The notes: generated from the letters alone by a model not told the origin. 64,000 nt of DNA from Candidatus Latescibacterota bacterium (GCA_965203175.1 OZ241867.1:4128001-4192000), one strand, 5' to 3'. Counted from the stretch's first letter, positions 1,823 to 46,500 are shown. Numbers and translations: made by a program.

Positions 1823-4800
1823 CTACTTGAGCAACAGCATCTTCTCGACTGCGAGGAACTTTCCACCGGCTTGGAGACGGTAGAAATAGATCCCCGCCGA
1901 CACGCTGTGCCCGCTGTCGTCGGTCGCGTCCCACTCTACTGTGTAGTGCCCGGTGCTCTGGTGCTCGGCGACGAGGGTGCGAACCGCTTGGCCAACGACA
2001 TTATAGACGGTCAATTCTACATCCATCGCGGTCGGTAGCGCATATTTGATCGTCGTCGTTGGGTTGAACGGGTTCGGATAGTTATGCGATTCAAACGTCA
2101 GCAGCGGGTTGACGCCCTTGGCGGAGGCTAGGGACGGTATCTCTGCATTGGTCAGGGTGATGGTTGCCGAGCCGCCAGCCAAACCCTCAATCGCACTGTT
2201 GAGCGCGATCGTCTCGTTGCCCTCGTCCTCGTCGTCGGCGATTGGATCGATGAAGAGGGATACCGCACCCGCTATCGAGCCGGCCGGAATCACAAGTAGC
2301 GGATCGAACAGCGCGGAGTAATCCAGATCGCGCTGGGCGGACGAAGCAGCGTCGATGGAGAGCTTCACGGCCGCGTCTTGGGGCAACGCCTTGCCGTCCA
2401 AGGTCGCCGTTATTGTAATCTCGGTCTTCCCGGCCCCCTCCTGTACCGTGTGTGGATTCACCGACAGCGCGATGGACGTACTCGCCGTTTCGTCGTCGTC
2501 GATCTTTATATCCGTCTGGGCTGAGCCACCGGATGCGGTGGCCTGCACCCCTAGGAACGTATCGCCATCTACCTCGTCGTTGTCGAAGGGGGTAAGGCGC
2601 AGCGTCGTCGTCGCTTGGGTCGCGCCGGCCGCAATGGGCACCGACCCCTCCAGTACTGCGGAGTAATCCGCATCGCGCACGGCCACTGTGCCTTGGGTGG
2701 GTACGGCAATGGTGAAGTACACGGTCTCGGCAGCGGGGGCGGCCGCAGCCAAGGTCGCGGTCAGGGTGATTTCCGTCGTCTCTCCATCCTCGCGCAGCGA
2801 CGAATGCGTTGACGTCACGCTAGCGACTGCAACCACGGGCGGCGGTGCCTCAACGACTGCGATTTTGAAGGTCATGGCCCTGCTTTCGGGCTTGGCTTCG
2901 TCGCCGTCGATCACCGTGTAGATGATGGTGGCTGTTCCGACCGCGGTCGGCGTGCCGGCAATCGTCCGCGTGGCTCGGTCAAACGACAGGCCGGCGGGCA
3001 GAGTGCTTGAGACGCTGTACGTCAGGTCGCCATCGCCGGTAGCTGGCGGCAGTTCGAGTGGTCGCATCGCCTTGCCAACCGCGACCGAGATGTCCGACTG
3101 GTTCTCGACGAAGGCCGGGGTTGTGTCGCCTGTCGGACTTACAGCCGCCCACGCACCCGTGTCTTTCAGCGCGATCGTCGCGGTGCTGACCGCGATTTCC
3201 TTCTTATCGTCGTTTTTGGGATTTTTCATCGCCTTTAGGATGATCTTCTCGTCTGCGTCCTCTATCCCGTCGTCTTTTGGGGTGATAGAGATGGTCTGCG
3301 ATCCCTGCGCTTGGCCGGCCGGAATCGTCACCGAACGAAGGAGCGATATGTAGTCGATATCGTGCGTCGCCGTAGCAGCATCACTCGTATCGAGGGCCAA
3401 GACTACGGTCACGTCCTTGGCCAATACCTTGCCGTCTAAAGTTGCGGTCACTGCAATTTCCGTTTCGCCGGCGTCCTCCCTCAGTTCATTAGTACTCACC
3501 TCCAGCGTTATGTGCTCGCTCGTGGTCTCGTCGTCGGTGATCTTGATCGCCGCGTTCATAAGCGCGGTTCCGACCTTAGCCGTCAGCTTGAAAGCCTTCG
3601 CCGCATTCACCCGCTCGTTGTCGATGGGGGTCAGGGTAAGCGTCGTCGTTCCCACGGTCTCGCCCTGCCGAATAGTGAGACTGCCTACGGTCGCGGTGTA
3701 ATGTGCATCGCGCACCGCCGGCTCTGCATCTGAGAGAAAGGCGTTGAGGGCGTCGTTGTCGCTAATGTCGTCAACATGGGCCGCCATAGTAAACAGCACC
3801 TTGGCGTCTGCCGCTAGGGAGTCCTGCAACTCAACCGTCAGCGCGATGTTTGTCGGCCCCTGATCCTCGCGTATCGCGTTAGGTCTCGCCGTCAGTCCTT
3901 TAATAGCCGCAGCCGGAGGATCCTTTAGCTCGATTTGGCGGTGGCCAATGGTTATGCGGTCGCCGCGTTGGTTCGTAGCGGACTTACCGTCCAAGTCGAT
4001 AACATTTAGAGGAACCTCGGCATCTAACGTGGCGTTGGGATCGCGCTTACCCACTAGCCGGATGATGCCAGTTCCTTTGTTCTTGGGAGCGATGGTAATC
4101 GTCGTCTGGCCCGACGCCTTGTTCTTTGGAATTGTTATACGGCCCAAGTTCGTCGCCGTGTAATCCACATCGCGCACCGCGTGATCGGGTGCGGCCTGAA
4201 TGCCCAAGTTAAAAGGCAGGGGCATGGTTAGCACCTTTCCGTTTAATTCTGCTCTTACGACGATATGGGTCGCATCCGCCTCCTTGCTGAGCGCGGACTT
4301 AGAAACCGAGAGGGTGATATTGGTGCTTGCCTTGTCGTCGTCGATCAAGCGCAGAAGCGGCCCGGGGGCGACTGTGTGAACACCGGCATTGCCCGTGATT
4401 TGGAGAACGAGGTCGTCGCCGTCGCCTGGGTCATTCTTAGTAGGGTCGTCGCAGGCCCCTTCGCCTTCGTCGTGTGCATCGTTTCCTTTGCGATCATCGT
4501 CAATGGGAATGAAGATGATCGTCCCAGTCGCTGCGCTCTTGCCCGCTGGAATAATGAGCGTGGGCAGCGTTAGGCGGTAGCGACTGTTGAGTCTAAAATC
4601 ACAACTCTCTGGGCTTTCGATCTCCAAGGTCACATAGATATCTTTTTCGACGGTCTCGACCTGATCGTCAGCGTAATTTCGGGCTGTTACCTCGATTTCG
4701 GTCTCACCGGCATCCTCGCGGACGAAGACAGTGTCTCTGGGGGAGTAGCCGTGCTTCAGCGTTAGCTTAATGTCCGCTCCTGCTTCACTAGCCCATCCCA

Positions 4801-4837
4801 ACGCCACTAGCCACAGCAACAACTGCGTGCGAATCAT
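1823..4837 (-). CDS. Secreted repeat protein: Calx-beta-like repeats, putative Ig (He_PIG-like) domain, FlgD/T9SS-like C-terminal domain
   Basis: Signal peptide; about 6 repeats of (R)EDAGxTEIxVTAxL...AxRDxDY...TIPxG...TPxDD; LPAGLSFDxATRTIAGTPT; C-terminal NYPNPFNPTTTIKY...WDATDDSG...GIYFYRL. Confidence 0.85.
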   Translation of the reverse strand: MIRTQLLLWLVALGWASEAGADIKLTLKHGYSPRDTVFVREDAGETEIEVTARNYADDQVETVEKDIYVTLEIESPESCDFRLNSRYRLTLPTLIIPAGKSAATGTIIFIPIDDDRKGNDAHDEGEGACDDPTKNDPGDGDDLVLQITGNAGVHTVAPGPLLRLIDDDKASTNITLSVSKSALSKEADATHIVVRAELNGKVLTMPLPFNLGIQAAPDHAVRDVDYTATNLGRITIPKNKASGQTTITIAPKNKGTGIIRLVGKRDPNATLDAEVPLNVIDLDGKSATNQRGDRITIGHRQIELKDPPAAAIKGLTARPNAIREDQGPTNIALTVELQDSLAADAKVLFTMAAHVDDISDNDALNAFLSDAEPAVRDAHYTATVGSLTIRQGETVGTTTLTLTPIDNERVNAAKAFKLTAKVGTALMNAAIKITDDETTSEHITLEVSTNELREDAGETEIAVTATLDGKVLAKDVTVVLALDTSDAATATHDIDYISLLRSVTIPAGQAQGSQTISITPKDDGIEDADEKIILKAMKNPKNDDKKEIAVSTATIALKDTGAWAAVSPTGDTTPAFVENQSDISVAVGKAMRPLELPPATGDGDLTYSVSSTLPAGLSFDRATRTIAGTPTAVGTATIIYTVIDGDEAKPESRAMTFKIAVVEAPPPVVAVASVTSTHSSLREDGETTEITLTATLAAAAPAAETVYFTIAVPTQGTVAVRDADYSAVLEGSVPIAAGATQATTTLRLTPFDNDEVDGDTFLGVQATASGGSAQTDIKIDDDETASTSIALSVNPHTVQEGAGKTEITITATLDGKALPQDAAVKLSIDAASSAQRDLDYSALFDPLLVIPAGSIAGAVSLFIDPIADDEDEGNETIALNSAIEGLAGGSATITLTNAEIPSLASAKGVNPLLTFESHNYPNPFNPTTTIKYALPTAMDVELTVYNVVGQAVRTLVAEHQSTGHYTVEWDATDDSGHSVSAGIYFYRLQAGGKFLAVEKMLLLK

Positions 4838-5454
4838 TACTCAACCTCCTTTTCCACAGGAAAGTATTCCTGCTTGTGAAAGTGGAAATTTTAACGGAGG
4901 GACGGTCTTGTCTGTCCTCGGCACACAGAGGGAGCCAAGGCATACGCCGCTGCGAAAATAGGACTGTACAGACCGCTAGCGCCCGACAGCGAGTGGAGTG
5001 CGAAGGTGAGTGGCGATCCCTTGGCGAAATCCGAGAGATCGAGGCCTAATGAAGGAGGAAATAGGGGAGAGTAAGTGTTTGTTTTAAGGAAACTTACGGT
5101 GTATTGATGGGAAGTCTTAGAACTGGAAGGGAAATGTAGCCACAGCAGTAGGATCTGCCGGCGGCAACGTCGTATTAGGTGTTGGTTATATCTTCCCGGT
5201 TATCCCTCGACGAGCGGGAACTCCGTTGTGGTACTACGCCAAAAAGGGTAGTGAAAAAGCAAAGGTGTTGTCAAGGAGGTTGCCGAGAATAGAGCGTCGA
5301 TTGGGACTGGAGTGCGGTTTAGTGCTCGCACCAATACCTTTAGGCGGGGCATCTGCGAAAGTTTGACGCAGTATGGTACACGTATATTTTTACCCTATAA
5401 AAATATGCGTGTGAGAATTTTATCACGGTTGTATTATGTGCGTAGAGGAATGAC

Positions 5455-6831
5455 ATGTTTCGAGTTGCAATTTGCGATCTGAAGAACTGGCAGACCAAAC
5501 CAAAGCGCAAACCGCTGGTGGTTCGGGGAGCCCGGCAGGTGGGGAAGACCTATCTGATCCGGCAATTCGGACGTGAGTGCTTCCACAATACGGTGGAGTT
5601 AAATTTCGAGCGGCAACCAGAACTGGCACAGTTATTTGCGTCCAAAGACCCCAACCAGATTCTCCCGTTGATCGAGTTGCAGTACAACACAGCTATCAAC
5701 CCCGGAGAAACGCTCCTGTTCCTCGATGAGATCCAAGCGGCTCCACAGGTCTTTGAGGCGCTGCGGTACTTCTTTGAGGAGCGCCCCGATATTCACGTCA
5801 TCGCCGCGGGTTCACTGCTCGAATTCGCGCTGGCAGAGCCATCCTTTGCAGTGCCTGTCGGCCGCATTGAATACCTGTATCTCGGTCCTATGACCTTTGA
5901 GGAGTTTCTGCTGGCCCAAGGCAAAGAGCGCCTCGTTTCTTTTCTCCGATCCTTTGAATTCCCTGCCACCATACCCGAGTCTTTGCACCGTCAGCTACTG
6001 GATGCCGTGAGGGAATACCTAGTGGTGGGAGGGATGCCTGCCAGCGTGTTTGCCTATACCCGGTCCGCGTCGCTTGCCGATACCGAGTCGGAGAAACAAT
6101 CGATCCTCGAGACCTTTGCCGAGGATTTTGGCAAATACGCGCGCAGGGCCGATCCCGACCGGCTGCGCAAGGTGTTCACCCGCCTCCCGATGCTGATCGG
6201 TCAGCGGCTGAAATACACCCATATTGACCGGGACGATCAGGCGCGAAATCTGGCCCATGCCTTGTCGTTGTTGTGCAAGGCCCTAGTCGCCTCGCGCGTC
6301 CATCACAGTGCCTGCAACGGCGTTCCGCTGCGGGCGGAAATCAAAGAGACTGTGTTTAAGCCGCTGTTCCTCGACGTTGGCTTGATGTCTAGTGCTTGTG
6401 GCCTCAACTTGCTGGACTTTGCCAGCGCAACGGACGTGCTGCAAGTGAACCAAGGGAGCGTTTGCGAGCAGTTTGTCGGACAGCATCTGCTCTACGGGCA
6501 TCCTTCCTTCGTCCGGCCGGAGCTATTCTTCTGGATGCGGGAGAAGTCTTCTTCCAATGCCGAGGTCGATTACGCGATCAGTATGGGCGCTAAAATCATC
6601 CCCGTCGAAGTCAAGGCGGGTAAGACCGGCACGCTCAAGTCGTTGCAGGTCTTTCTCAAGACCAAGGCACAGAACATAGGGGTGCGCGTGAACAGCGGTC
6701 CTCCTACTTGGCATACGGCCAACTACGCCTTGCCTGGGATGGCGGAGCAATCCTTTGAATTGGTCTCGATTCCTTTTTACCTAGTGGGACAATTGCGTAG
6801 GTTACTTGGAGAAAAGCAAAGCAACGGCTAA
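5455..6831 (+). CDS. AAA_14 ATPase with DUF4143 C-terminal PD-(D/E)xK-like domain
   Basis: GARQVGKT Walker A, LFLDEIQ Walker B, GGMP, EVDY...IPVEVKAG. Confidence 0.9.
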   Translation: MFRVAICDLKNWQTKPKRKPLVVRGARQVGKTYLIRQFGRECFHNTVELNFERQPELAQLFASKDPNQILPLIELQYNTAINPGETLLFLDEIQAAPQVFEALRYFFEERPDIHVIAAGSLLEFALAEPSFAVPVGRIEYLYLGPMTFEEFLLAQGKERLVSFLRSFEFPATIPESLHRQLLDAVREYLVVGGMPASVFAYTRSASLADTESEKQSILETFAEDFGKYARRADPDRLRKVFTRLPMLIGQRLKYTHIDRDDQARNLAHALSLLCKALVASRVHHSACNGVPLRAEIKETVFKPLFLDVGLMSSACGLNLLDFASATDVLQVNQGSVCEQFVGQHLLYGHPSFVRPELFFWMREKSSSNAEVDYAISMGAKIIPVEVKAGKTGTLKSLQVFLKTKAQNIGVRVNSGPPTWHTANYALPGMAEQSFELVSIPFYLVGQLRRLLGEKQSNG

Positions 6832-6842
6832 TACACTGGTTA

Positions 6843-9800
6843 TTGAACATGGACTCCAACTTTTCGTCTCGCTGCCTTTCGCTCGACCTTGAGGTCGGCA
6901 AGCAGGATTGCCGCATTCATGCCTTCGCCGCGGTACGTCCGGATGTCGATCAACCGCTGGTTTTCCAAGGGGGCGACTTAGCGGCAGCATTGACAGAACT
7001 CGACAAATTCGCTGATGGTGCGGACTTTCTGCTTGGCCACAACCTGATCGATTTCGATCTGCCCCATCTGAAAGCAGCAAAGCCCGATCTCCGGCTGTTG
7101 AAGCTGCCGGCGGTGGATACGCTGCGGCTCAACCCCCTCGCCTTTCCTCGCAATCCCTATCACCACCTCGTCAAGCACTATCAGGATGGACAACTCAAAC
7201 GCGGGCGACGGAACGACCCGGAACTCGACGCTCGGATTGCGCTGGAAATTTTCGACAATCAGCAAACCGCGTTGCGCGATGCGCTGCTTGGCTTGCTCGC
7301 CGCGTGGCATTGGCTGACCGGAACGGGACCCGACGGTGAGGGGTTCGACGCCGTTTTTACCTCCATACGGTACGCGCCTCGACCAACTGATGCGGTCGCG
7401 AAAGCGGCGATCCACGAGCGGCTTGCGGGCATCGCCTGCCAGAATCGCGGTCGGGATGTTTTCGATAATGTCGCCCAAAGCGGCTGGCCACTAGCGTACG
7501 CGCTAGCTTGGCTGTCAGTTTCCGGCGGCAATTCCGTGATGCCGCGGTGGGTTCGACATCAGTTCCCAGAAGCCGATAAGCTGATTCGCCGACTACGGGA
7601 TATGCCCTGCGACGAGGCGGATTGTGGCTGGTGCCGGGAAAGACACGACGCTCGCAAGGAGCTTAAGCGTTGGTTCGGCTTTGACGATTTCCGGCCGGAG
7701 CCGAAGGACATGGACAAACAACAGCCCATGCAGCAGTCCATCGTTGAGGCGGCAATGGCCGGGGAGCACGTTTTGGGGATTCTGCCCACCGGCACCGGCA
7801 AGTCGCTCTGTTACCAGATCCCGGCCCTATCCCGCTACTACAAGACTGGCGCTCTCACGGTGGTGATTTCACCCTTGGTTGCGCTCATGGCGGATCAGGT
7901 GGCGGGACTGGAGGCTCATAGAATCGACTCGTGCGTAGCCATCAATGGATTGCTGTCCATGCCCGAGCGGGCCGATGCGCTGGATCGGGTACGATTGGGG
8001 GATGCAGGCATTCTCATCATCTCGCCGGAGCAACTCCGCAACCGTTCTCTGCGCCGTGCATTCGACCAACGCGAGATAGGGGCTTGGGTGCTGGACGAGG
8101 CTCATTGTCTATCGAAATGGGGGCATGACTTTCGGCCGGATTACCGCTACGTGGGGCGCTTCATCTGCGAAAAGGCGGGACAGGACCCGATCCCGCCGGT
8201 GCTATGCCTGACTGCGACCGCTAAACCCGACGTAGTGGAGGACATCAAGCAGCATTTTCGGGATGAACTCGACGTAGGACTGAAGGTCTTCGACGGCGGT
8301 GCCCATCGCACCAATCTGGAGTTCATAGTAGTGCCGACAACCGCCGAAGAGAAGTTCTCGCGCATCCACCAGATTCTTATGGCCGATCTGCCGCCGGATG
8401 CGTCCGGCGGTGCCATCGTCTATTGTATGACGCGTCGGCGGACCGAAGAGATAGTGGATTTCCTTCAGGATAAAGAGGTTGCGGCAGACTTCTTCCATGC
8501 CGGGCTGCCGCCGGAGACTAAGAAGAGTGTACAGCAGCGCTTCATCGACGGCAAACTGCGCGTGATCGCGGCCACCAATGCCTTCGGCATGGGTATTGAC
8601 AAGCCGGATGTGCGATTGGTGATCCACGCCGATATTCCGGGATCGCTGGAGAACTACATGCAGGAGGCTGGCCGCGCTGGCCGTGACCGCGAGATGGCTC
8701 GTTGCGTACTGCTCTATGCGACGGATGACGTGGAGAGGCAGTTTGGCCTGTCGGCGCGTTCGCGGCTCACTCAGGAGGAAATTAGCGGTGTCCTGAAGGC
8801 ATTGCGAAACTTAGATCAGAAGAATCAGAAGAAGCGTCTGAATGGCGAAGTCGTAGCCACCGCCGGCGAGATCCTCGGCGAGGACGAGGAAAAGGTCTTT
8901 GAGCGGGACTCCGCCACCGACGATACCCGCGTGCGAACCGCCATCTCTTGGCTTGAGGAGGCAGTACTACTGACCCGGGAAGAGAACCAAGTGCAGGTGC
9001 TTCCTTCGTCTCTCCGGGTGGACTCGGTGAAGGAAGCACGCAGTCGGTTGGCGAAGGCGTCCGTTGCCCATGACTACCGGCAACGGCTGCTTAAAATAGC
9101 CGAGACCCTGATTGATGCCGACCCCGACGAGGGCATCTCTACCGACGAGTTGATGGGTGTATCCGGTCTGAGCGCCGAAGGTGTGCGTGGTGCTCTGTAC
9201 GACTTGGAAGAGCTAGACATTGCCAGCAACGAGATGGCACTGACCGCCTTCGTCCACGCAGGAATAGTGCGCAGTTCTCAGAAGCGCTTTGATGAGGCGG
9301 CGGAGTTGGAGGCCGCCCTGATCGCGCAGATGCGCGAGGCTGCACCGGATATGGGCAAGGGAGATACGTGGCCCCTGCATTTGCGCTTCGCCGCGCAAAC
9401 TCTGCGTGATCAAGGGGTGGCTGATCCGTTGCCGGAACGACTACGGCGCATTCTCCGCAGCATTGCCTACGACGGGCGCGGTGAAGGGGGCGACGCCGGC
9501 AGCATCGGGGTGCAACAGCGGGATGCGGAGACGATGCAGGTGACGCTGCGGCGCGAGTGGTCGGCGTTGGAGGAGTTCGCGTCGCGCCGACGCGATGGAG
9601 CAAAATTCCTGCTGGCTCACTTGCTCGCTTGCCTGCCGCCTAGGAGTAAGGGCATGGACTTGCTGGCTAAGACTACCCTCGGCAAGCTGTTGGAAGTGAT
9701 AAAGTCCGACCTGTTCCTGAATAGAAAGAGCACAAACCCCGATAAGTTACTGGACCGTGCCCTTCTATGGCTGCACGAGCAGGAGGTTATTCGCCTGAAC

Positions 9801-31069: not shown

Positions 31070-31191
31070 TGTTTGGTACCGTCTGCAAGCAGCAGCTTGT
31101 AAATTGAGTGCGTAGGGACATAATTTTTTGCAGCAGAAGTAACACTCCGCGCCACCATAGGTGTTTAAGTAGTAACACCGCCAGGGAATAC

Positions 31192-31665
31192 ATGGACGTA
31201 GATACACTGTACCGTCGCTACGGGCCGATGGTCATGCGTCGTTGTCGGCAGCTTTTGCGCGACGAAGACCAGGCGCTCGACGCCACCCAGGACGTTTTTG
31301 TGCGGCTATTGACGCGGCGCGATCGCCTGCGAGATGACGCGCCCTCCAGCCTGCTCTATCGCATGGCCACCAACCTCTGCCTCAATCGCATTCGCGATAC
31401 CCGGCGGCGGAAGACCACGGCCGACTCGACGCTGTTGGAGCAGATCGCCTGCTGGGAGGACGCCGAGGGCCAGATAGATGCGCGCGCCGCACTCGCCAAG
31501 CTCTTTGGCCAGCAACTTGAGTCAACGCGCACGATGGCCGTCTTGTACTACGTGGACGGCATGACCTTGGAGGAAGTAGCCAGAGAAGTGGGCATGTCCG
31601 TGTCCGGCGTGCGCAAGCGGCTGCTCGGCCTGCGAGCATCGCTGCAAGAGATGGAGAAGCTATGA
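31192..31665 (+). CDS. ECF (sigma-70 family) RNA polymerase sigma factor
   Basis: LYRRYGPMV...ALDATQDVF...LYRMATNLCLNRIR (region 2); DGMTLEEVAREVGMSVSGVRKRL (region 4). Confidence 0.92.
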   Translation: MDVDTLYRRYGPMVMRRCRQLLRDEDQALDATQDVFVRLLTRRDRLRDDAPSSLLYRMATNLCLNRIRDTRRRKTTADSTLLEQIACWEDAEGQIDARAALAKLFGQQLESTRTMAVLYYVDGMTLEEVAREVGMSVSGVRKRLLGLRASLQEMEKL

Positions 31666-32426
31666 ACCAGCAAGACAAACACCCCATAAGCGACTACCAG
31701 CTAGAGCGCTACCTGCTGCGCGAGGGAACGGACGACGAGTTGGCGGATTTGGAACGCCGGTTGGCGGATGATCCAGAACTAGCGCAGCGGTTAGCGGCCC
31801 TAGAGCGTTCCAATGAGGAATTGCATCGGCGCTACCCACCCGAATGGATGCGCGGCCAGATCGAGCTAAAACTCAAGCGGGCGCAGGGCCGGCGCGTCCA
31901 ACGAACGTGGAGTGGGTATCGCCTTTGGGCCGTGCCGGCCGTGGCCCTGATCCTGGCGGTGGTGGCGGTGCCCACTCTCCTTGATGACCAAGAGACTTCG
32001 GAAGCACCTGCGACGCGCATTAAGGGCGGCGATCAGGAGCCGCGTCTGCTGGTTTTCCGCAAGCTGTCCATCGGTGTGGAGCGTCTGCAAGACGAAGCCT
32101 TGGCCCGAAGTGGGGACTTAGTGCAGCTCGCTTACCGCTCGGGTGGCTTGCAGTTCGGGGCGATCCTGTCCGTCGATGGGCGCGGTACTGTAACCCAACA
32201 CCTGCCCGCGACTGGAGCAGAGGCCGTGCCGCTGGCGGCGCAAGATACTCTCGACGTTGCCTACGAACTGGACGACGCGCCGCGGTGGGAGCGGTTTTAC
32301 TTGGTGGCGGCCGATCGTCGATTTGGCTTGGCAGCAGTCAAAACCAAGCTGGCCGCCGGCGATGTGGCGTTGGGGGATGACGTCCGCCTATTCCGATTTA
32401 CTGTGAAGAAACCTAGGGAGCCCTAG
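31662..32426 (+). CDS. Putative membrane anti-sigma factor (ActD-like / DUF4384-like extracytoplasmic domain)
   Basis: ATGA overlap with the sigma gene; N-terminal LERYLL.E...LE helical domain, single TM (WAVPAVALILAVVAVP), C-terminal GDLVQLAY...ILSVDGRGTV...AYELDDAP.WERF. Confidence 0.75.
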   Translation: MNQQDKHPISDYQLERYLLREGTDDELADLERRLADDPELAQRLAALERSNEELHRRYPPEWMRGQIELKLKRAQGRRVQRTWSGYRLWAVPAVALILAVVAVPTLLDDQETSEAPATRIKGGDQEPRLLVFRKLSIGVERLQDEALARSGDLVQLAYRSGGLQFGAILSVDGRGTVTQHLPATGAEAVPLAAQDTLDVAYELDDAPRWERFYLVAADRRFGLAAVKTKLAAGDVALGDDVRLFRFTVKKPREP

Positions 32427-32541
32427 CTCCGCCTAGGGCAATCACGAGGAGGAGGTTGGCAACCAACGACGAGGAGTGAGCGTCGTTGTGTTGTCGTTGT
32501 AGAGGCGACCCTTGTGGTTGCCCTATTGTCTCTGAGGAGTT

Positions 32542-34602
32542 GTGCCCATGTCTTTGGTGCGCGTCCTGCTGATCGTTGTCGCTGCGGCGGGTCTGTCCCA
32601 GCCGGTGGAGGCGGAAGTGCGCCGGCTGATACTGGCAGCGGGGGCCAACAATGGCGGGGTGGATCGCGAATTGCTGCGCTACGCGGTCTCGGACGCGGAA
32701 CAATTCGTCGAGGTGTTGCAGGAGATGGGAGGCTTGGACCCAGCCGATGTGTTGCTGCTGCGCGATCCCGACTTGACGGCCTTCGAGCAGGGACTGGCCG
32801 ATCTAGGCAGGCGGGTAAAGACAGCTAGCCGACGGGGGGACCGCTTAGAGGTGCTGCTGTATTACTCGGGCCACGCCGACGAAGAGGGCCTGCTGTTGGC
32901 CGGCGATCACCTCGGCTATCAGCAATTGCTCGACTCACTGAAGACGGCCAACGCCGCCGTCCGCATCGCCGTCCTCGATGCCTGCAACTCCGGGAGCATA
33001 ACCCGCATCAAGGGTGGCAAGCCCAAGCCGCCCTTTTTGGTCGATGAGTCTTTTGACATGCGGGGGTACGCCTTTCTCACGTCGAGTTCGGCCGACGAGG
33101 CAGCCCAAGAGTCGGACCTGATCGAGGCGTCCTTTTTTACCCACTATCTAATTTCCGGGATGCGCGGCGCAGCCGACGTTACCGGCGATGGCCGGGTGAC
33201 TCTGCACGAGGCGTACCAGTTTGCATTCGACGAGACGCGGGCGCGGACTCTTGGGACAGTGGGAGGCACTCAGCATCCGGCCTATGAGGGCCAGATGCGC
33301 GGCACTGGCGGCGTGGTGATGACCGAGGTGCGCCGCAATGCCGCGGGTCTGTCGCTGGACGAGGCCCTCGCTGGTCGGGTCTCTATCCGCAATGGCCAGC
33401 AGCGCCTAGTCGCCGAACTGAACAAATCCCCTGGGCGGGAGGTCGAGTTGGGATTGGTGCCGGGGGATTATACCCTGTTTTTGGAAACGTGGGACGCGGA
33501 CTGGCGCTTGGCCGAATTGGTTTTGACCGAAGGAGAGTTCGCCAAGGTGAGTACCGGTGACTTTCGCGCCTTGACCCCGGAGGAGACTAAGCTGCGCGGC
33601 GGCTCGGGGCGGAAGATTACCTTGGGGCGTCAGATCGAGGTCGCCACCGGAGAGGGCTACACCTTGTCGCTGGGGCTGTTGACCAATACGCAGGACGAGG
33701 CGTTTCGCGGCGTCCAGTTCGCCTGGTTGGTCAACCAAGCGCGCGGGCGGACGGGCAGTCAGGTCGGCGGGTTGGGCAACTTGGCGCTCAGGGAGGTCGA
33801 TGGCTGGCAGGCATCCGTCGTAGGGGTCAACTGGGCGATGGGGCCGTTGCAGGGTGGACAGGTGGGCCTGCTCAACATTGCCTCGCAAGTGCGCGGTTGG
33901 CAGGTGGCGCAAACGACCAACATCGTCGGCAAAATTCGCGGTTGGCAAATAGCCGGGCTCACCAATTTCGTCGGCGAGGTCAAGGGTGGTCAGGTTGGAT
34001 TACTGAACGTGGCGAGCGAGGTCAGGGGGTGGCAGGTGGGCTTGGTCAATCTTTCCGGTCACATCGAAAGCGGCATACCCATCGGGTTGATCAACTACTC
34101 GCGCAGCGGGCTTTTCAATCTCAGCACTTGGCGCGACGAAATCGGCTTTACCATGTTCACCCTCGCCTCGGGCAGCCGCTCGTTTTACACTGCTTTTACT
34201 ACTGGCTTTACTGACAAGGATGGACAGCGGCGCTGGGCGGTGGGCGTGGGCGGTGGGGTGCAGAAGCGCGGGCAGCGATTCTTCCTCGGCCTCGATGTAC
34301 ACAGCTACCGGATCAGCCGCGACCTCGATGACGATTACAGTGCGGGCATTGGGTTTTGGCCGCCCGCAGTGGACTTTGGTCTAGATCGCTTGGCTAGGGA
34401 CAACTATCTGGCGCGGATCAAACTTGAGACGGGGGTCGCTTTGCACAACCATCTGGTGCTGTTTGGTGGCGTCTCCCTGAACCAGTTGTGGACCGATGGC
34501 CATCAGCGGCTGATTGAGTCGGGCAGTCGCTACGAAAAGGAGTTAAAAGATGGGATTTTCACGTGGCCTGGTTTTTTCTTTGGCTTGCGCTACGGGCGTT
34601 AG
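32542..34602 (+). CDS. Secreted caspase-family (peptidase C14) protein with LA_2272-like repeats and probable C-terminal beta-barrel
   Basis: Signal peptide; LRYAVSDA, YYSGHAD (His), VLDACNSG (Cys), AQES...SFFTHYL; G(W/G)Q(V/I)GL.N repeats; ends GFFFGLRYGR. Confidence 0.88.
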   Translation: MPMSLVRVLLIVVAAAGLSQPVEAEVRRLILAAGANNGGVDRELLRYAVSDAEQFVEVLQEMGGLDPADVLLLRDPDLTAFEQGLADLGRRVKTASRRGDRLEVLLYYSGHADEEGLLLAGDHLGYQQLLDSLKTANAAVRIAVLDACNSGSITRIKGGKPKPPFLVDESFDMRGYAFLTSSSADEAAQESDLIEASFFTHYLISGMRGAADVTGDGRVTLHEAYQFAFDETRARTLGTVGGTQHPAYEGQMRGTGGVVMTEVRRNAAGLSLDEALAGRVSIRNGQQRLVAELNKSPGREVELGLVPGDYTLFLETWDADWRLAELVLTEGEFAKVSTGDFRALTPEETKLRGGSGRKITLGRQIEVATGEGYTLSLGLLTNTQDEAFRGVQFAWLVNQARGRTGSQVGGLGNLALREVDGWQASVVGVNWAMGPLQGGQVGLLNIASQVRGWQVAQTTNIVGKIRGWQIAGLTNFVGEVKGGQVGLLNVASEVRGWQVGLVNLSGHIESGIPIGLINYSRSGLFNLSTWRDEIGFTMFTLASGSRSFYTAFTTGFTDKDGQRRWAVGVGGGVQKRGQRFFLGLDVHSYRISRDLDDDYSAGIGFWPPAVDFGLDRLARDNYLARIKLETGVALHNHLVLFGGVSLNQLWTDGHQRLIESGSRYEKELKDGIFTWPGFFFGLRYGR

Positions 34603-43545: not shown

Positions 43546-46500
43546 TGTTCATCCCCCAGTGTCGTGGAGTTGTAATTATTTCTATGGCTAGCTCCATAGC
43601 CACTGCCGTCTCCCCGGCCCCGCCCATCGCCGAGCCCGTACCCGTACCCACTGCCGTCTCCCTGCCCCCGGCCGTCGTACCCACCACTTATCTCTTCACT
43701 TTCGCGGACAGCTTGTTGGCGCTGATCCTCGAAGTCGATGTTGCGTCGTATCCAAGCGGCCATCAGAGGAACTGCGAGCATATATGCTGAGCCTCGTGCT
43801 GTCTCTTGGAGTTCAAGGAGTTCGAGCTCACGGAGAAACTCTAGATCGTCTCCTAAGCGGTCTTCTTGAGGGAGAGCAATGCCGTACTCCTCGAGCTTCG
43901 TCTCCAGCAAACTCAGTGTGATGGGATCCGGCTCTCCCTCTAGCTGCTGGCACAATGCTAGGATAAAACGTCTACGCTCTGTTTCAGCGTAACCCCACAG
44001 CGTGCGGAAGTGTTCGTTATCCTTCACCATCTCTTGAGCTGTCGTGTTTACCGTCCCTACCGTCACTGTTCGCTCACCCGAACGAGCGGCGTGATCGAAA
44101 ATCCGGTTGCACAAGGACTGGATCAGGAAGGGTTGTTGTGAACACAGTTCGACTACGCGATTCCTCGCCTCGGGCACGTACGTGAACCGCTCCATGACCG
44201 GCTGTGTCACGAGGAGGCGGGCATCCTCCAGTGGAAGTTCGCGTACGGAGACTGGGTGGCCGAACCCGAAGAGCGTTGACCAATACTCCTTCCGCAGTCG
44301 CGTGAGCCGATATGAGCCGGTGAGTATAGCTGACATGTCCGAGTAAGTGTGGAGCAGGTAGCGGATGTTCTCCGGGACCTGTGAGCTTGTGATCTTGGCG
44401 TCGATCCCTTCTTGGAGTTTGTCGAACTCATCGAGCATGAGTAGGAGGCGTCGCGGACTGGCAGCCTCTAGGACAGACTGTATATAAAGTTCGAAGATCT
44501 CGAAGGGTCGCGCTCCAGAGAACGCTGTTGAGAGAGCTTTCGCAAACGTGACCTTGAATGGCTTATCCGGGTCAGGGGAATTCATGTCTGGGAGCCACAC
44601 TCGAAGCCCTGCGTCATGTGTCGCCCAGCCGATGTCGCGCGCCATAAGTCTGAAGACCTCGTTGGTGGGCAAACCGGCCTTGCTTTCGTGGCCTTCGCCA
44701 CCTTGTAGGGAGCAGTACACGACAATCCAGCCCGGAAGCACGTTGGGAGCCTGCAGGCGCTTGAGAATTGAGGTCTTGCCTGTTCTGCGGTTGCCTTCTA
44801 GAAAGATGACGTTGGCTTGGTGGCTGGTAGAGAGCTGTCGCTGAATCGTGTCGATGATGTCTTGGCGTCCGAAGAACATCTCCTCACGATCAATTGGGCT
44901 TCCGACGATGTATGGGCTGGTGCCGAGCTCAGCGAGGTGGACGGCCTCTCGCGTGGAACGAATCTCTACCGCAAGTGGCAGTTCACCAGATACAGGCTGT
45001 CCGTCAAGGCGGTCGGCTTGCCATCGAAGCTCGAACTGGAATGGCCTGGTCTCTGTACGCGCTGGGATCTTCGCCGTAAAACTGAGCATCTCGTCCTCAG
45101 CGAGGTAGCCGATATGGGTCGAGCCGACCGGGGGTGATGTGGAGACCGAGACGTTGCGCAGCGCTAGAGGCGACAGGTTTTTCACGCGGATCTGGATTTC
45201 GTTCTCCGTCCCCGCTACGACCGCGCTCGGTTCAATACTCGGATCCAATTCGATGTCTTCTAGGAGGGAGTCCAACTCGGCCCGAACGAGCTGGGAAATC
45301 CTTCTGGTGACATCTATCGCAGAGGCGAATGCCGGCAGCAGCGTCTCTTTGACAGGAAGCCCCGAGTGGAATCCCACACCGGACTTCCATCCTGCCAAAT
45401 AGGAATCTCCTCGTCTTCTGATCGTCGAATAGACCTCCTTAAGGCGGTGCTGTGCGCTGTCGAGGAGCGCCATGCGCCCCGACCCGGGTGGTACGTGATT
45501 CAGGCCCTGTAGCATCTTCACGGCCTCCGCGAGATCCTTCAGCCACGAGGCGAATTGAGGGGAAGTGCGCGATTGAGCGACCTGATTTTGGAGTTCCCAG
45601 ACCGAATGAGCAACCCGTTCCAAAAGTGCCACGCGGCTGGCCGTCTGGTCCGATCTCCGCAACTCTTGCACATCGGGAGATCCCATCAACCATGAGACAA
45701 CCAACTCCTCGCTGTCGCCCGTCAGGATACGTACGAGGGCGGCAAAGGGATCGTCTCCCTCCTCATCCATCTGCTTTACAATATGCTCTTGGATCGGAAC
45801 TTGCGGCACCAAGACGGGAAGATGTCGTAGCGTTCGAATGGAGAGGTGCTGGATAGTTGCCCCACGTACGTGACCACGGATCCATTCTTGGTAGGCATCA
45901 GAGGCGAGGAGACTCTTCAAAAACTGTGAAGAGATCTGTTCCTTGGGGCGTATGACGACCAAGCTCTTGGCGGCCACTGAGTCCACGGTACCTGTCGGCT
46001 CGGACACGATCGCCAGTTTTCCGATGGTGCCAGAGATGGTGAGCAGGATATCGCCGGCACGTAGCCGGTGCTTCGGATGCACTCGTTCGCTACTTCCATT
46101 GGTCAGGAAGATGGATGGAGGTTGTATACCAGTGCGGTTCACATCCGCTACGCGTACGAGGCCAGCGAACACCGATGGATCGTCTCCGTGCGGCGTGGTT
46201 ACTGACTTCCTGTACGAAACACCGGTAAAAATCTCCGCTACCTTGTTGAGTGGCTGTATGGAGACTTCGACATCCGCCTCTTGCAGAGCTTGAAGAAAGC
46301 GAGACAGAGCTTCCTCACCTGTTCGCTTAGCAACCAACTCCCAGTCCCTAGTCTTGAGTTCCTTGACCGGGGTTTCCCAGAGGCTGCCGTTTGGTGTGCC
46401 GCTCCTGAATTCGTCAGCGATACTGCGCACCGCTTCGCCTGCCTTCTCACGGCTGAACCCGTCTTCTGGTCGGATAGAGGGCCACTCCTCTACCTGCATG

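Follow-up and report, generated by a model that had tools for sequence, protein, structure and literature searches.

In regulated intramembrane proteolysis, an extracytoplasmic cut in an anti-sigma factor is followed by the cut of a site-2 protease, as is the case for DegS and RseP acting on RseA-sigmaE and for PrsW and RasP acting on RsiW-sigmaW. To our knowledge, the activation route of most extracytoplasmic function (ECF) sigma factors is unknown, and almost none of the abundant bacterial relatives of caspases has a known natural substrate. The release of a sigma factor by a caspase-fold protein has been seen in Craspase and proposed for DdvA. According to the Craspase preprint (bioRxiv 10.1101/2022.08.17.504292), the caspase-like Csx29 of the type III-E clustered regularly interspaced short palindromic repeats (CRISPR) system cleaves Csx30 within the flexible linker that joins its sigma-binding N-terminal domain to a C-terminal domain, which in one group of Csx30 proteins is DUF4384. 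The DdvA paper (PMC11506125) proposes that, ahead of RseP, the periplasmic CHAT domain of DdvA from Myxococcus xanthus cuts the juxtamembrane linker of DdvA itself, and quotes the Craspase cleavage as being after Met or Leu, whereas the P1 residue that we propose here is basic. Here, we describe a cassette of three co-directional genes, encoding an ECF sigma factor, a single-pass anti-sigma factor and a caspase-family protein, at positions 31192-34602 (+ strand) of a stretch of 64,000 nucleotides from Candidatus Latescibacterota bacterium (GCA_965203175.1 OZ241867.1:4128001-4192000), the whole of which is called the window. The anti-sigma factor and the caspase share a motif that is conserved among their relatives, and we hold, with middling confidence, that the caspase-like enzyme is the site-1 protease of the anti-sigma factor, acting at T-R-x-K↓G (the arrow marks the proposed scissile bond), and that it matures at the same motif. 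The three genes and the three motif copies, called Sites A, B and C, are as follows.

31192-31665, + strand: ECF sigma factor gene (Sigma70_r2, 56.4 bits; Sigma70_r4_2, 27.5 bits; TIGR02937, 80 bits against a cut-off of 42.9)
31662-32426, + strand: gene of the single-pass anti-sigma factor, whose ATG overlaps the sigma stop codon (ATGA)
32542-34602, + strand: gene of the caspase-like protease, given as the mechanical open reading frame (ORF) of 686 codons from GTG 32542 (PF00656, 30.6 bits against a cut-off of 21.4)
32013-32030, + strand: Site A, TRIKGG, anti-sigma residues 118-123, in frame (ACG CGC ATT AAG GGC GGC)
33001-33018, + strand: Site B, TRIKGG, caspase residues 154-159, in frame (ACC CGC ATC AAG GGT GGC)
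33586-33603, + strand: Site C, TKLRGG, caspase residues 349-354 (ACT AAG CTG CGC GGC GGC)

The cassette resembles Craspase in that a caspase-fold protease is paired with a sigma-holding protein that has a flexible linker, and a DUF4384-type domain also lies directly 3' of the motif here; the cleavage is proposed in our case. Craspase differs in being cytoplasmic and RNA-guided, with the TPR-CHAT protein Csx29 and the ECF-like sigma factor RpoE, whereas the present system has a periplasmic C14 protein, a membrane-spanning anti-sigma factor and an outer-membrane anchor, with no CRISPR genes in the cassette. The DdvS-DdvA pair is alike in that an ECF sigma factor is held by a single-pass anti-sigma factor and that the flexible linker by the membrane helix is the proposed target of a periplasmic caspase-fold domain, followed by RseP. 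However, in DdvA, the TPR-CHAT part is fused to the anti-sigma factor and has an incomplete active site, and the proposed cleavage is in trans, between the subunits of a dimer; here, the C14 protein is encoded separately and anchored in the outer membrane, the anti-sigma ectodomain is a small DUF4384-type sandwich and a shared motif marks the candidate site. With the regulated intramembrane proteolysis systems, the locus shares a single-pass anti-sigma factor, an M50 protease encoded in the genome and a stub of 9-37 residues after the proposed cut. It differs from them in that the site-1 candidate is a caspase-fold cysteine protease that shares an operon with the anti-sigma factor and has an outer-membrane anchor, and in having a conserved basic-Gly site.

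The first-pass annotation, which was made from the sequence alone, had pointed to TRIKGG in both proteins, with different codons, and to the variant TKLRGG in the caspase. Reading the sequence directly bears out the peptides, the codons and all of the coordinates, as well as the placements: Site A is 11 residues past the membrane helix at residues 91-107, Site B is 6 residues past the catalytic Cys and Site C is in the linker 5' of the repeat/barrel part. Caspase residues are numbered from GTG 32542, and the catalytic residues were located at 32983-32985 (Cys148) and 32872-32874 (His111). TRIKGG is the sole hexamer common to the two proteins; at least one shared hexamer was obtained in 410 of 20000 residue shuffles of this pair, with 0.023 expected from composition. 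For this pair alone, which was picked after being seen, the shared hexamer is mildly unlikely and no stronger than suggestive. The case rests on the conservation of the motif among relatives.

A query with the caspase recovered the gene in 35 of 41 related genomes, and a pattern scan, in which each species was represented by one genome, matched 600 stretches; 514 of these were relatives, and the best 80 loci were kept. The record titles cover Latescibacterota/Gemmatimonadota, Fibrobacterota, Myxococcota, Spirochaetota, Leptospirales and others. With an iterated profile, 102 of 110 loci were seen to have an anti-sigma homologue immediately 5' of the caspase gene. A closer look at the remaining eight loci showed that two (L082 and L074) do have an anti-sigma gene and that one (L024) ends at a contig end; in the last five (L042, L073, L093, L095 and L108), there is none at the locus, and all five genomes hold an anti-sigma gene elsewhere. 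In three of these five genomes, the sigma/anti-sigma pair is at one locus and the caspase at another, with the motifs kept in both proteins. The sigma gene is present 5' in 83 of 92 unique loci, and in six of the nine loci without it, the anti-sigma ORF begins less than 300 nucleotides from the start of the stretch, which is a contig end for most of them. No other conserved neighbour was found around the cassette in the 92 unique loci.

The motif itself was strongly conserved in the 92 unique locus pairs. In the anti-sigma factor, K-G is present in 92/92 and R-x-K-G in 86/92; at Site B of the caspase, the figures are 92/92 for K-G and 90/92 for R-x-K-G-G, and at Site C, 88/92 for R-G and 79/92 for T-x-x-R-G. 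The residue 4 before the scissile position is Thr or aliphatic at all three sites. In a subset of 52 loci with less than 70% caspase identity, the K and G of the anti-sigma motif are invariant and are among only nine invariant positions of the entire protein, while the K and G of Site B and the R of Site C are each kept in at least 95%. The anti-sigma family is much larger than this set, with 2316 clusters (50% identity) at E ≤1e-30 in a search that ran without a word index. Among 150 representatives of these clusters, K-G was found in all 150 and R-x-K-G in 137, and K121 and G122 are invariant in an alignment of 50 anti-sigma sequences. To judge from these sequences, the conservation is far beyond chance and the spread over phyla is real. 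The co-conservation of R.KG in both proteins across homologous operons, which had been put forward as the check on the predicted shared cleavage site, was confirmed in the 92 pairs and, for the anti-sigma factor, in the 150 representatives.

We then considered where the motif lies in the two proteins. The AlphaFold model of the caspase has a mean predicted local distance difference test (pLDDT) score of 87.9 and comprises the following parts.

32542-32616, + strand: putative signal peptide, residues 1-25 (in the model, a hydrophobic N-terminal helix at 3-17 ahead of the first strand at 26)
32614-33324, + strand: caspase/metacaspase-fold domain, residues 25-261, with His111 and Cys148 (VIA-align, Foldseek)
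33325-33576, + strand: beta-sandwich after the caspase domain, residues ~262-345 (AlphaFold strands at 250-344, high pLDDT)
33604-34110, + strand: beta-helix stalk of ~15-residue G-x-Q...N repeats (LA_2272-type), residues ~355-523 (VIA-align, NCBIfam)
34099-34599, + strand: C-terminal 8-stranded outer-membrane beta-barrel, residues ~520-686 (VIA-align)

Structural alignment of the model with VIA-align gave Z 21.2 to Arabidopsis metacaspase 4 (6w8r, root-mean-square deviation 2.7, 207 residues aligned), 20.1 to caspase 3 and 20.0 to caspase 9, and Foldseek gave a probability of 1.00 to legumain, MALT1, metacaspases and caspases. A search of the solved structures (PDB) with the single caspase sequence gave no match, and a profile search of the same database matched metacaspases. 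The fold, the His and Cys motifs (SGH and D-x-C-x-S-G) and the Pfam score place the protein in Peptidase C14 (clan CD). Across 61 sequences, H111, C148, S109, G110, S150, G151 and D146 are invariant and D51 is present in at least 90%; in a profile alignment, the 'YYSGH' and 'LDsCaSG' of the family correspond to 'YSGHG' and 'DSCHSG' of the metacaspases, and the D51 region corresponds to 'ND(A/V)'. We take S109, D146 and D51 to be the acidic S1-pocket positions of the metacaspase TbMCA2 (Asp95, Asp211). The residues that make the pocket of metacaspases fit a basic P1 thus appear to be conserved here, and a preference for Lys or Arg at P1 would be expected.

The metacaspases and orthocaspases (C14B; Arabidopsis metacaspases 4 and 9, MaOC1) are alike in fold, His-Cys dyad and acidic pocket positions, as well as in the expected Arg/Lys P1 and self-processing, and MaOC1 of Microcystis reportedly cuts the product of a neighbouring gene, an antitoxin. 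The present protein differs from them in being secreted, fused to a beta-sandwich, a beta-helix and a barrel, and linked to sigma and anti-sigma genes, with a candidate self-processing site 9 residues past the Cys. A review of the C14 family (PMC5756287) states that all characterised non-caspase C14 proteases favour Arg/Lys at P1, owing to an acidic pocket, and that autoprocessing of orthocaspases is a prerequisite for activity. This agrees with the statement of the first-pass annotation that such enzymes cut after Arg/Lys and process themselves.

Both caspase sites fall in parts of the model that have low confidence. The Site B loop, between the Cys-bearing strand 140-147 and strand 175-180, has pLDDT <50 at residues 157-163, a stretch that begins with the K-G-G of the motif, and at 166-168. 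In caspases 3 and 7, the loop after the Cys strand is the cut site between the large and small subunits. Site C is in a stretch with pLDDT <50 (348-357), at the exact boundary of the protease part and the beta-helix/barrel anchor, and the only remaining stretch of this kind is 606-608. The anchor itself was recognised by structure: the stalk gave Z 12-13.5 to the beta-helical proteins 3p4g, 8cpk and 2odl (the NCBIfam repeat model NF047436, LA_2272_repeat, scored 24.3 bits, with a cut-off of 25), and the barrel gave Z 15.0 to the N-terminal barrel of OprF (4rlc), 14.0 to NspA, 12.6 to OmpW, 12.5 to PagL and 12.0 to the transmembrane domain of OmpA. The order of protease, beta-helix and C-terminal barrel brings to mind an autotransporter (type V), in which a barrel of 12 strands would export the passenger; the barrel part here has ~167 residues and resembles 8-stranded barrels, and no autotransporter barrel is among the matches listed, which came from a search with the complete model. 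In Pfam, scans of the full-length caspase protein and of its C-terminal 335 residues gave no TonB-dependent receptor or signalling-domain family. The arrangement recalls FecI-FecR-FecA, where, likewise, an ECF sigma factor and a single-pass anti-sigma factor are accompanied by an outer-membrane protein that reaches into the periplasm toward the anti-sigma factor; it differs in that no TonB-dependent transducer is found by Pfam, the barrel is small and the periplasmic part is a protease.

The anti-sigma factor was modelled with a mean pLDDT of 86.8. Its N-terminal part consists of four helices (11-18, 24-36, 38-57 and 60-79), followed by three elements.

31932-31982, + strand: predicted transmembrane helix, residues 91-107 (AlphaFold helix; hydrophobic stretch)
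31983-32027, + strand: flexible juxtamembrane linker, residues 108-122 (pLDDT <50; hypervariable outside the motif)
32043-32408, + strand: periplasmic immunoglobulin (Ig)-like beta-sandwich, DUF4384-type (AlphaFold strands at 128-249, pLDDT >90)

This layout, with a helical N-terminal domain, a single membrane helix and coupling of the gene to that of the sigma factor, is the one of a class I single-pass anti-sigma factor, and the gene order and domain layout suggest that this protein binds and inhibits the sigma factor. The latter contains regions 2 and 4 only, both above the family thresholds of Pfam and NCBIfam, as is the case for ECF (sigma-70 group 4) sigma factors. The NCBIfam anti-sigma models were all below their cut-offs for the window protein, including NF052375 'antisigma' (E 1.2e-5). 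DUF4384 (PF14326) was matched by 12 of 50 family members at E ≤0.01 (best 5.7e-6), the window's own protein being without a match. In the 150 representatives, the distance from the end of the membrane helix to the Lys varies between 9 and 37 residues (median 19) and is unalignable. In the models, all three motifs are probably in flexible loops, and an invariant motif in a flexible linker looks like a recognition or cleavage site rather than an element of the fold.

A Foldseek search with the anti-sigma model gave nothing at E ≤0.001. The VIA-align matches of the ectodomain were generic Ig-like and macroglobulin domains (alpha-2-macroglobulin and complement, which are protease-bait proteins), at Z 8-9, which is in the background range. 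The homologues P0148, P0167 and P0199 carry the public name 'ActD-like protein'; no text on ActD of the Myxococcus act operon was found, and the lead was dropped.

A promoter of the ECF type is predicted in front of the cassette.

31139-31165, + strand: predicted ECF-type promoter, GTAACA-N16-GGTGTT, upstream of the sigma gene

Of 59 upstream regions from various phyla, 48 contain the pattern GT[GA]AC-N16-19-[GT]TGTT, at a distance of 50-92 nucleotides from the sigma gene, compared to 0.135 in mononucleotide shuffles; it was derived after viewing examples, and the excess is very large all the same. These upstream sequences suggest that the cassette is probably self-activating, that is, autoregulated. 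The exact promoter pattern occurs four times in the genome, compared to zero for the reversed control. Besides the cassette's own copy, a near-copy, with similarity running past the -10 element, is located 56 nucleotides 5' of an accessory gene for an LptE-like lipoprotein (G000:C1:3605111-3605634, or 212-735 of locus L139; Pfam LptE, 24.3 bits, cut-off 23). Three of the six loci of the LptE-like paralogue retain this promoter copy, which is absent from all 24 loci of the core LptE gene; on this evidence, the LptE-like gene may belong to the regulon and connect the module with the assembly of the outer membrane. The two other copies, one before a PLD/helicase-like gene and one before no convincing gene, were not taken as regulon members. 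The genome also contains a gene for an RseP-type M50 protease (227.9 bits, 437-aa frame).

Taken together, these elements could form a self-contained envelope signalling cassette, in which a secreted protease would be tethered to the outer membrane by its stalk and barrel. The protease would favour a basic P1 residue (Lys or Arg) followed by Gly at P1', in the context T-R-x-K↓G or T-x-x-R↓G. It would mature by cutting its own post-Cys loop at R-I-K157↓G and would be detached from its anchor at K-L-R352↓G, and it would cut the anti-sigma factor at R-I-K121↓G, in the linker that connects the membrane helix to the DUF4384-type ectodomain. The short periplasmic stub left behind would be a substrate for the RseP-type site-2 protease, and the sigma factor thereby freed would transcribe its own operon from the GT(G/A)ACA-N16-GGTGTT promoter. 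The sequences and models themselves give the order of the genes, the domain architecture, the conservation of the motif, its placement in loops and the promoter, and each of these cleavages, as well as their specificity, their order and the signal that would set them off, belongs to the proposal. The prediction of the first-pass annotation, that the caspase autoactivates and clips the anti-sigma ectodomain at one and the same motif and may release itself from its anchor at KLR↓GG, stands in part: the co-conservation, the placement in flexible loops, the basic-P1 pocket residues and the position of Site C fit it, while the lack of covariation and the caspases of loci L120 and L121, which are without the motif, do not.

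As to whether the caspase motif is tied to the linkage with sigma and anti-sigma genes, 25 Peptidase_C14 matches were examined in five genomes. Ten of them adjoin an anti-sigma homologue, and eight of these ten show R-x-K-G after the Cys, including the divergent L124, L126 and L127, whose anti-sigma factors also read R-L-K-G. Among the 15 matches without an anti-sigma neighbour, nine lack the motif, two (L130 and L135) keep K-G-G, one (L133) reads S-R-G-G and in three the Cys could not be placed; L130 and L135 are clear members of the same family as the sigma-linked caspases. In these sequences, the motif appears to mark the sigma-linked caspase clade, with a coupling that is not absolute. A Peptidase_C14 search of the window's own genome gave no match, missing even this gene, and is uninformative on paralogues there.

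In the other two of the ten, L120 and L121, the caspase reads 'C-H-S-G-S-G-K-S'. In a sister family of the same class, one locus (L111, G036:C1:1930500-1939500) has one sigma/anti-sigma pair followed by two caspase paralogues, at 2022-3593 and 5304-7028, which lie ~1.7 kb apart and both read T-R-L-K-G-G; they are shorter (523 and 574 aa) and have another C-terminal part.

Several points weigh against the caspase-like enzyme being the site-1 protease. The reading comes from sequences and models. Many of the 92 loci are close kin, so that the counts overstate the number of independent events. The residue between R and K shows no covariation in the partners, being identical in 27 of 92 pairs, and in Fibrobacter, the caspase has A, L or V where the anti-sigma factor has I. 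In L120 and L121, which are from Myxococcota and form the most divergent sigma-linked subclade, the anti-sigma linker contains K-G-P twice and the caspase has no R-x-K-G after the Cys; hence, the two motifs are not strictly coupled. Family members without an adjacent anti-sigma gene (L130, L135, L073, L093, L095 and L108) keep K-G-G. A 'T-R' is found near the same spot in unrelated C14 paralogues, and therefore part of the caspase motif may be structural. Lys157 is only 9 residues past Cys148, and the self-processing sites of characterised metacaspases are farther from the Cys. Finally, another periplasmic protease with basic specificity could act at the same anti-sigma site. A complex prediction with caspase residues 27-360 and anti-sigma residues 105-254, both given as alignments, scored 0.00, which is under the mark of the tool and weighs neither way on binding.

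Some of these points would also be expected if the motifs were conserved for separate reasons and the caspase were an output of the sigma factor, not its activator, which we regard as a lesser but real possibility. In that case, R-x-K-G-G would belong to the active-site loop of the protease or be where it matures itself. The K-G of the anti-sigma factor would be a cleavage or binding site of a housekeeping protease in the periplasm or would serve the ectodomain in another manner, and DUF4384 would sense the signal. The variable position without covariation, the anti-sigma K-G that is kept in L120/L121 without a caspase motif and the K-G-G that is kept in caspases not adjoining an anti-sigma gene all fit this explanation. 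Furthermore, with the operon under a sigma-dependent promoter of its own, the caspase would be a regulon member in any case, and the known site-1 proteases DegS and Prc are housekeeping enzymes encoded elsewhere. However, this explanation does not account for the confinement of K-G-G after the Cys to the sigma-linked caspase clade, for the recurrence of one P4-P1' pattern (T/aliphatic, R, x, K, G) in the anti-sigma factor, in the caspase loop and in the linker ahead of the anchor, or for the pair being adjacent or co-occurring in every genome tested.

The invariance of the motif within a flexible linker and its match to the loop motif of the protease would fit equally well if the anti-sigma motif were a docking or pseudosubstrate element in the groove of the protease, tethering or inhibiting it, with signalling by binding and release; clan CD proteases are often kept inactive by loops or partners in the substrate groove. 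We consider this distinctly improbable. A strict Lys at P1 with a small Gly at P1' is what an ordinary substrate looks like, with no sequence sign of cleavage resistance, and the release of a sigma factor from a membrane anti-sigma factor normally needs proteolysis. Both precedents, Csx30 and the DdvA proposal, involve cleavage as well.

Among its many clan CD matches, the caspase fold also matches an asparaginyl peptide ligase (5h0i, Z 18.2) and the glycosylphosphatidylinositol (GPI) transamidase (7w72, Z 17.6), and clan CD does contain transpeptidases (legumain-type ligases, GPI transamidase and PorU); Gly-Gly after the scissile bond resembles the motifs of ligation systems. The enzyme could on these grounds be a transpeptidase that cleaves K/R↓G and joins the new end to another envelope molecule. 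This is very improbable, since the ligase and transamidase matches are no better than those to plain proteases, no conserved acceptor or partner gene is nearby and the sigma/anti-sigma context favours regulated proteolysis. That the shared hexamer is a meaningless coincidence has a negligible probability, as this is contradicted by K-G in 92/92 partner pairs and in 150/150 cluster representatives, even though ~2% of the shuffles of this pair share a hexamer and the match was noticed after the fact.

If the caspase-like enzyme does cut the anti-sigma factor, the release of a sigma factor by a caspase-fold protein would extend from Craspase and the proposed case of DdvA to a widespread stand-alone envelope system, in which the cassette supplies the enzyme, a candidate substrate, a candidate scissile bond and a reporter promoter together. 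No description of a stand-alone C14 sigma/anti-sigma module was found in full-text searches of the literature, and supplements, such as that of the ECF classification paper, may list this neighbourhood. Two further ideas can be added to this reading, which, taken together, seem rather unlikely to us. The first is that of an envelope sensor gated by geometry: a protease on a rigid stalk may reach the T-R-x-K↓G on the inner-membrane side only after self-release at T-x-x-R↓G or after a change in the spacing or integrity of the envelope. The second is that DUF4384 may be a general domain for presenting the linker to caspase-fold proteases, in the periplasmic system and in the Craspase substrates (Csx30) alike; if so, the combination of a sigma-binding head, a cleavable linker and DUF4384 would be an ancient, reusable switch. 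That the output has to do with the assembly of the outer membrane or of lipopolysaccharide is hinted at by the promoter copy in front of the LptE-like gene.

Regarding anti-sigma factors without a caspase, no informative orphans were found in 168 genomes of the phylum, in which each positive genome has one full-length anti-sigma factor in addition to decayed remnants. Decayed cassettes were seen in two genomes, at L113 (G116) 3532-5785 and L112 (G029) 3581-4289. One of these has a sigma factor of 92 aa, an anti-sigma factor reduced to the ectodomain (129 aa, the motif being gone) and an intact caspase, and the other has fragments of the sigma factor and of the ectodomain only, with no caspase.

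The starts of two of the genes were also reconsidered. The sigma gene most likely begins at ATG 31192 rather than at GTG 31108 of the mechanical ORF, because the predicted promoter at 31139-31165 sits 3' of the GTG; its homologues align from the Met at 31192. For the caspase, ATG 32548, which is 8 nucleotides 3' of GAGGAG, is the more likely start on the sequence, and the resulting 684 aa is the length of many of its homologues. In this genus, the anti-sigma and caspase genes are separated by a gap of 115 nucleotides (32427-32541) with terminator-like hairpins at 32490-32522; most other phyla have them directly adjoining or overlapping (gap of 0-5 nucleotides). By eye, no separate sigma-type promoter with the right spacing was seen in the 115-nucleotide gap, and a scan gave the terminator-like hairpins only. 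The loose promoter pattern is matched once more in the window, though less well, by GTAACC...AGTGTT at 43989-44014 on the + strand.

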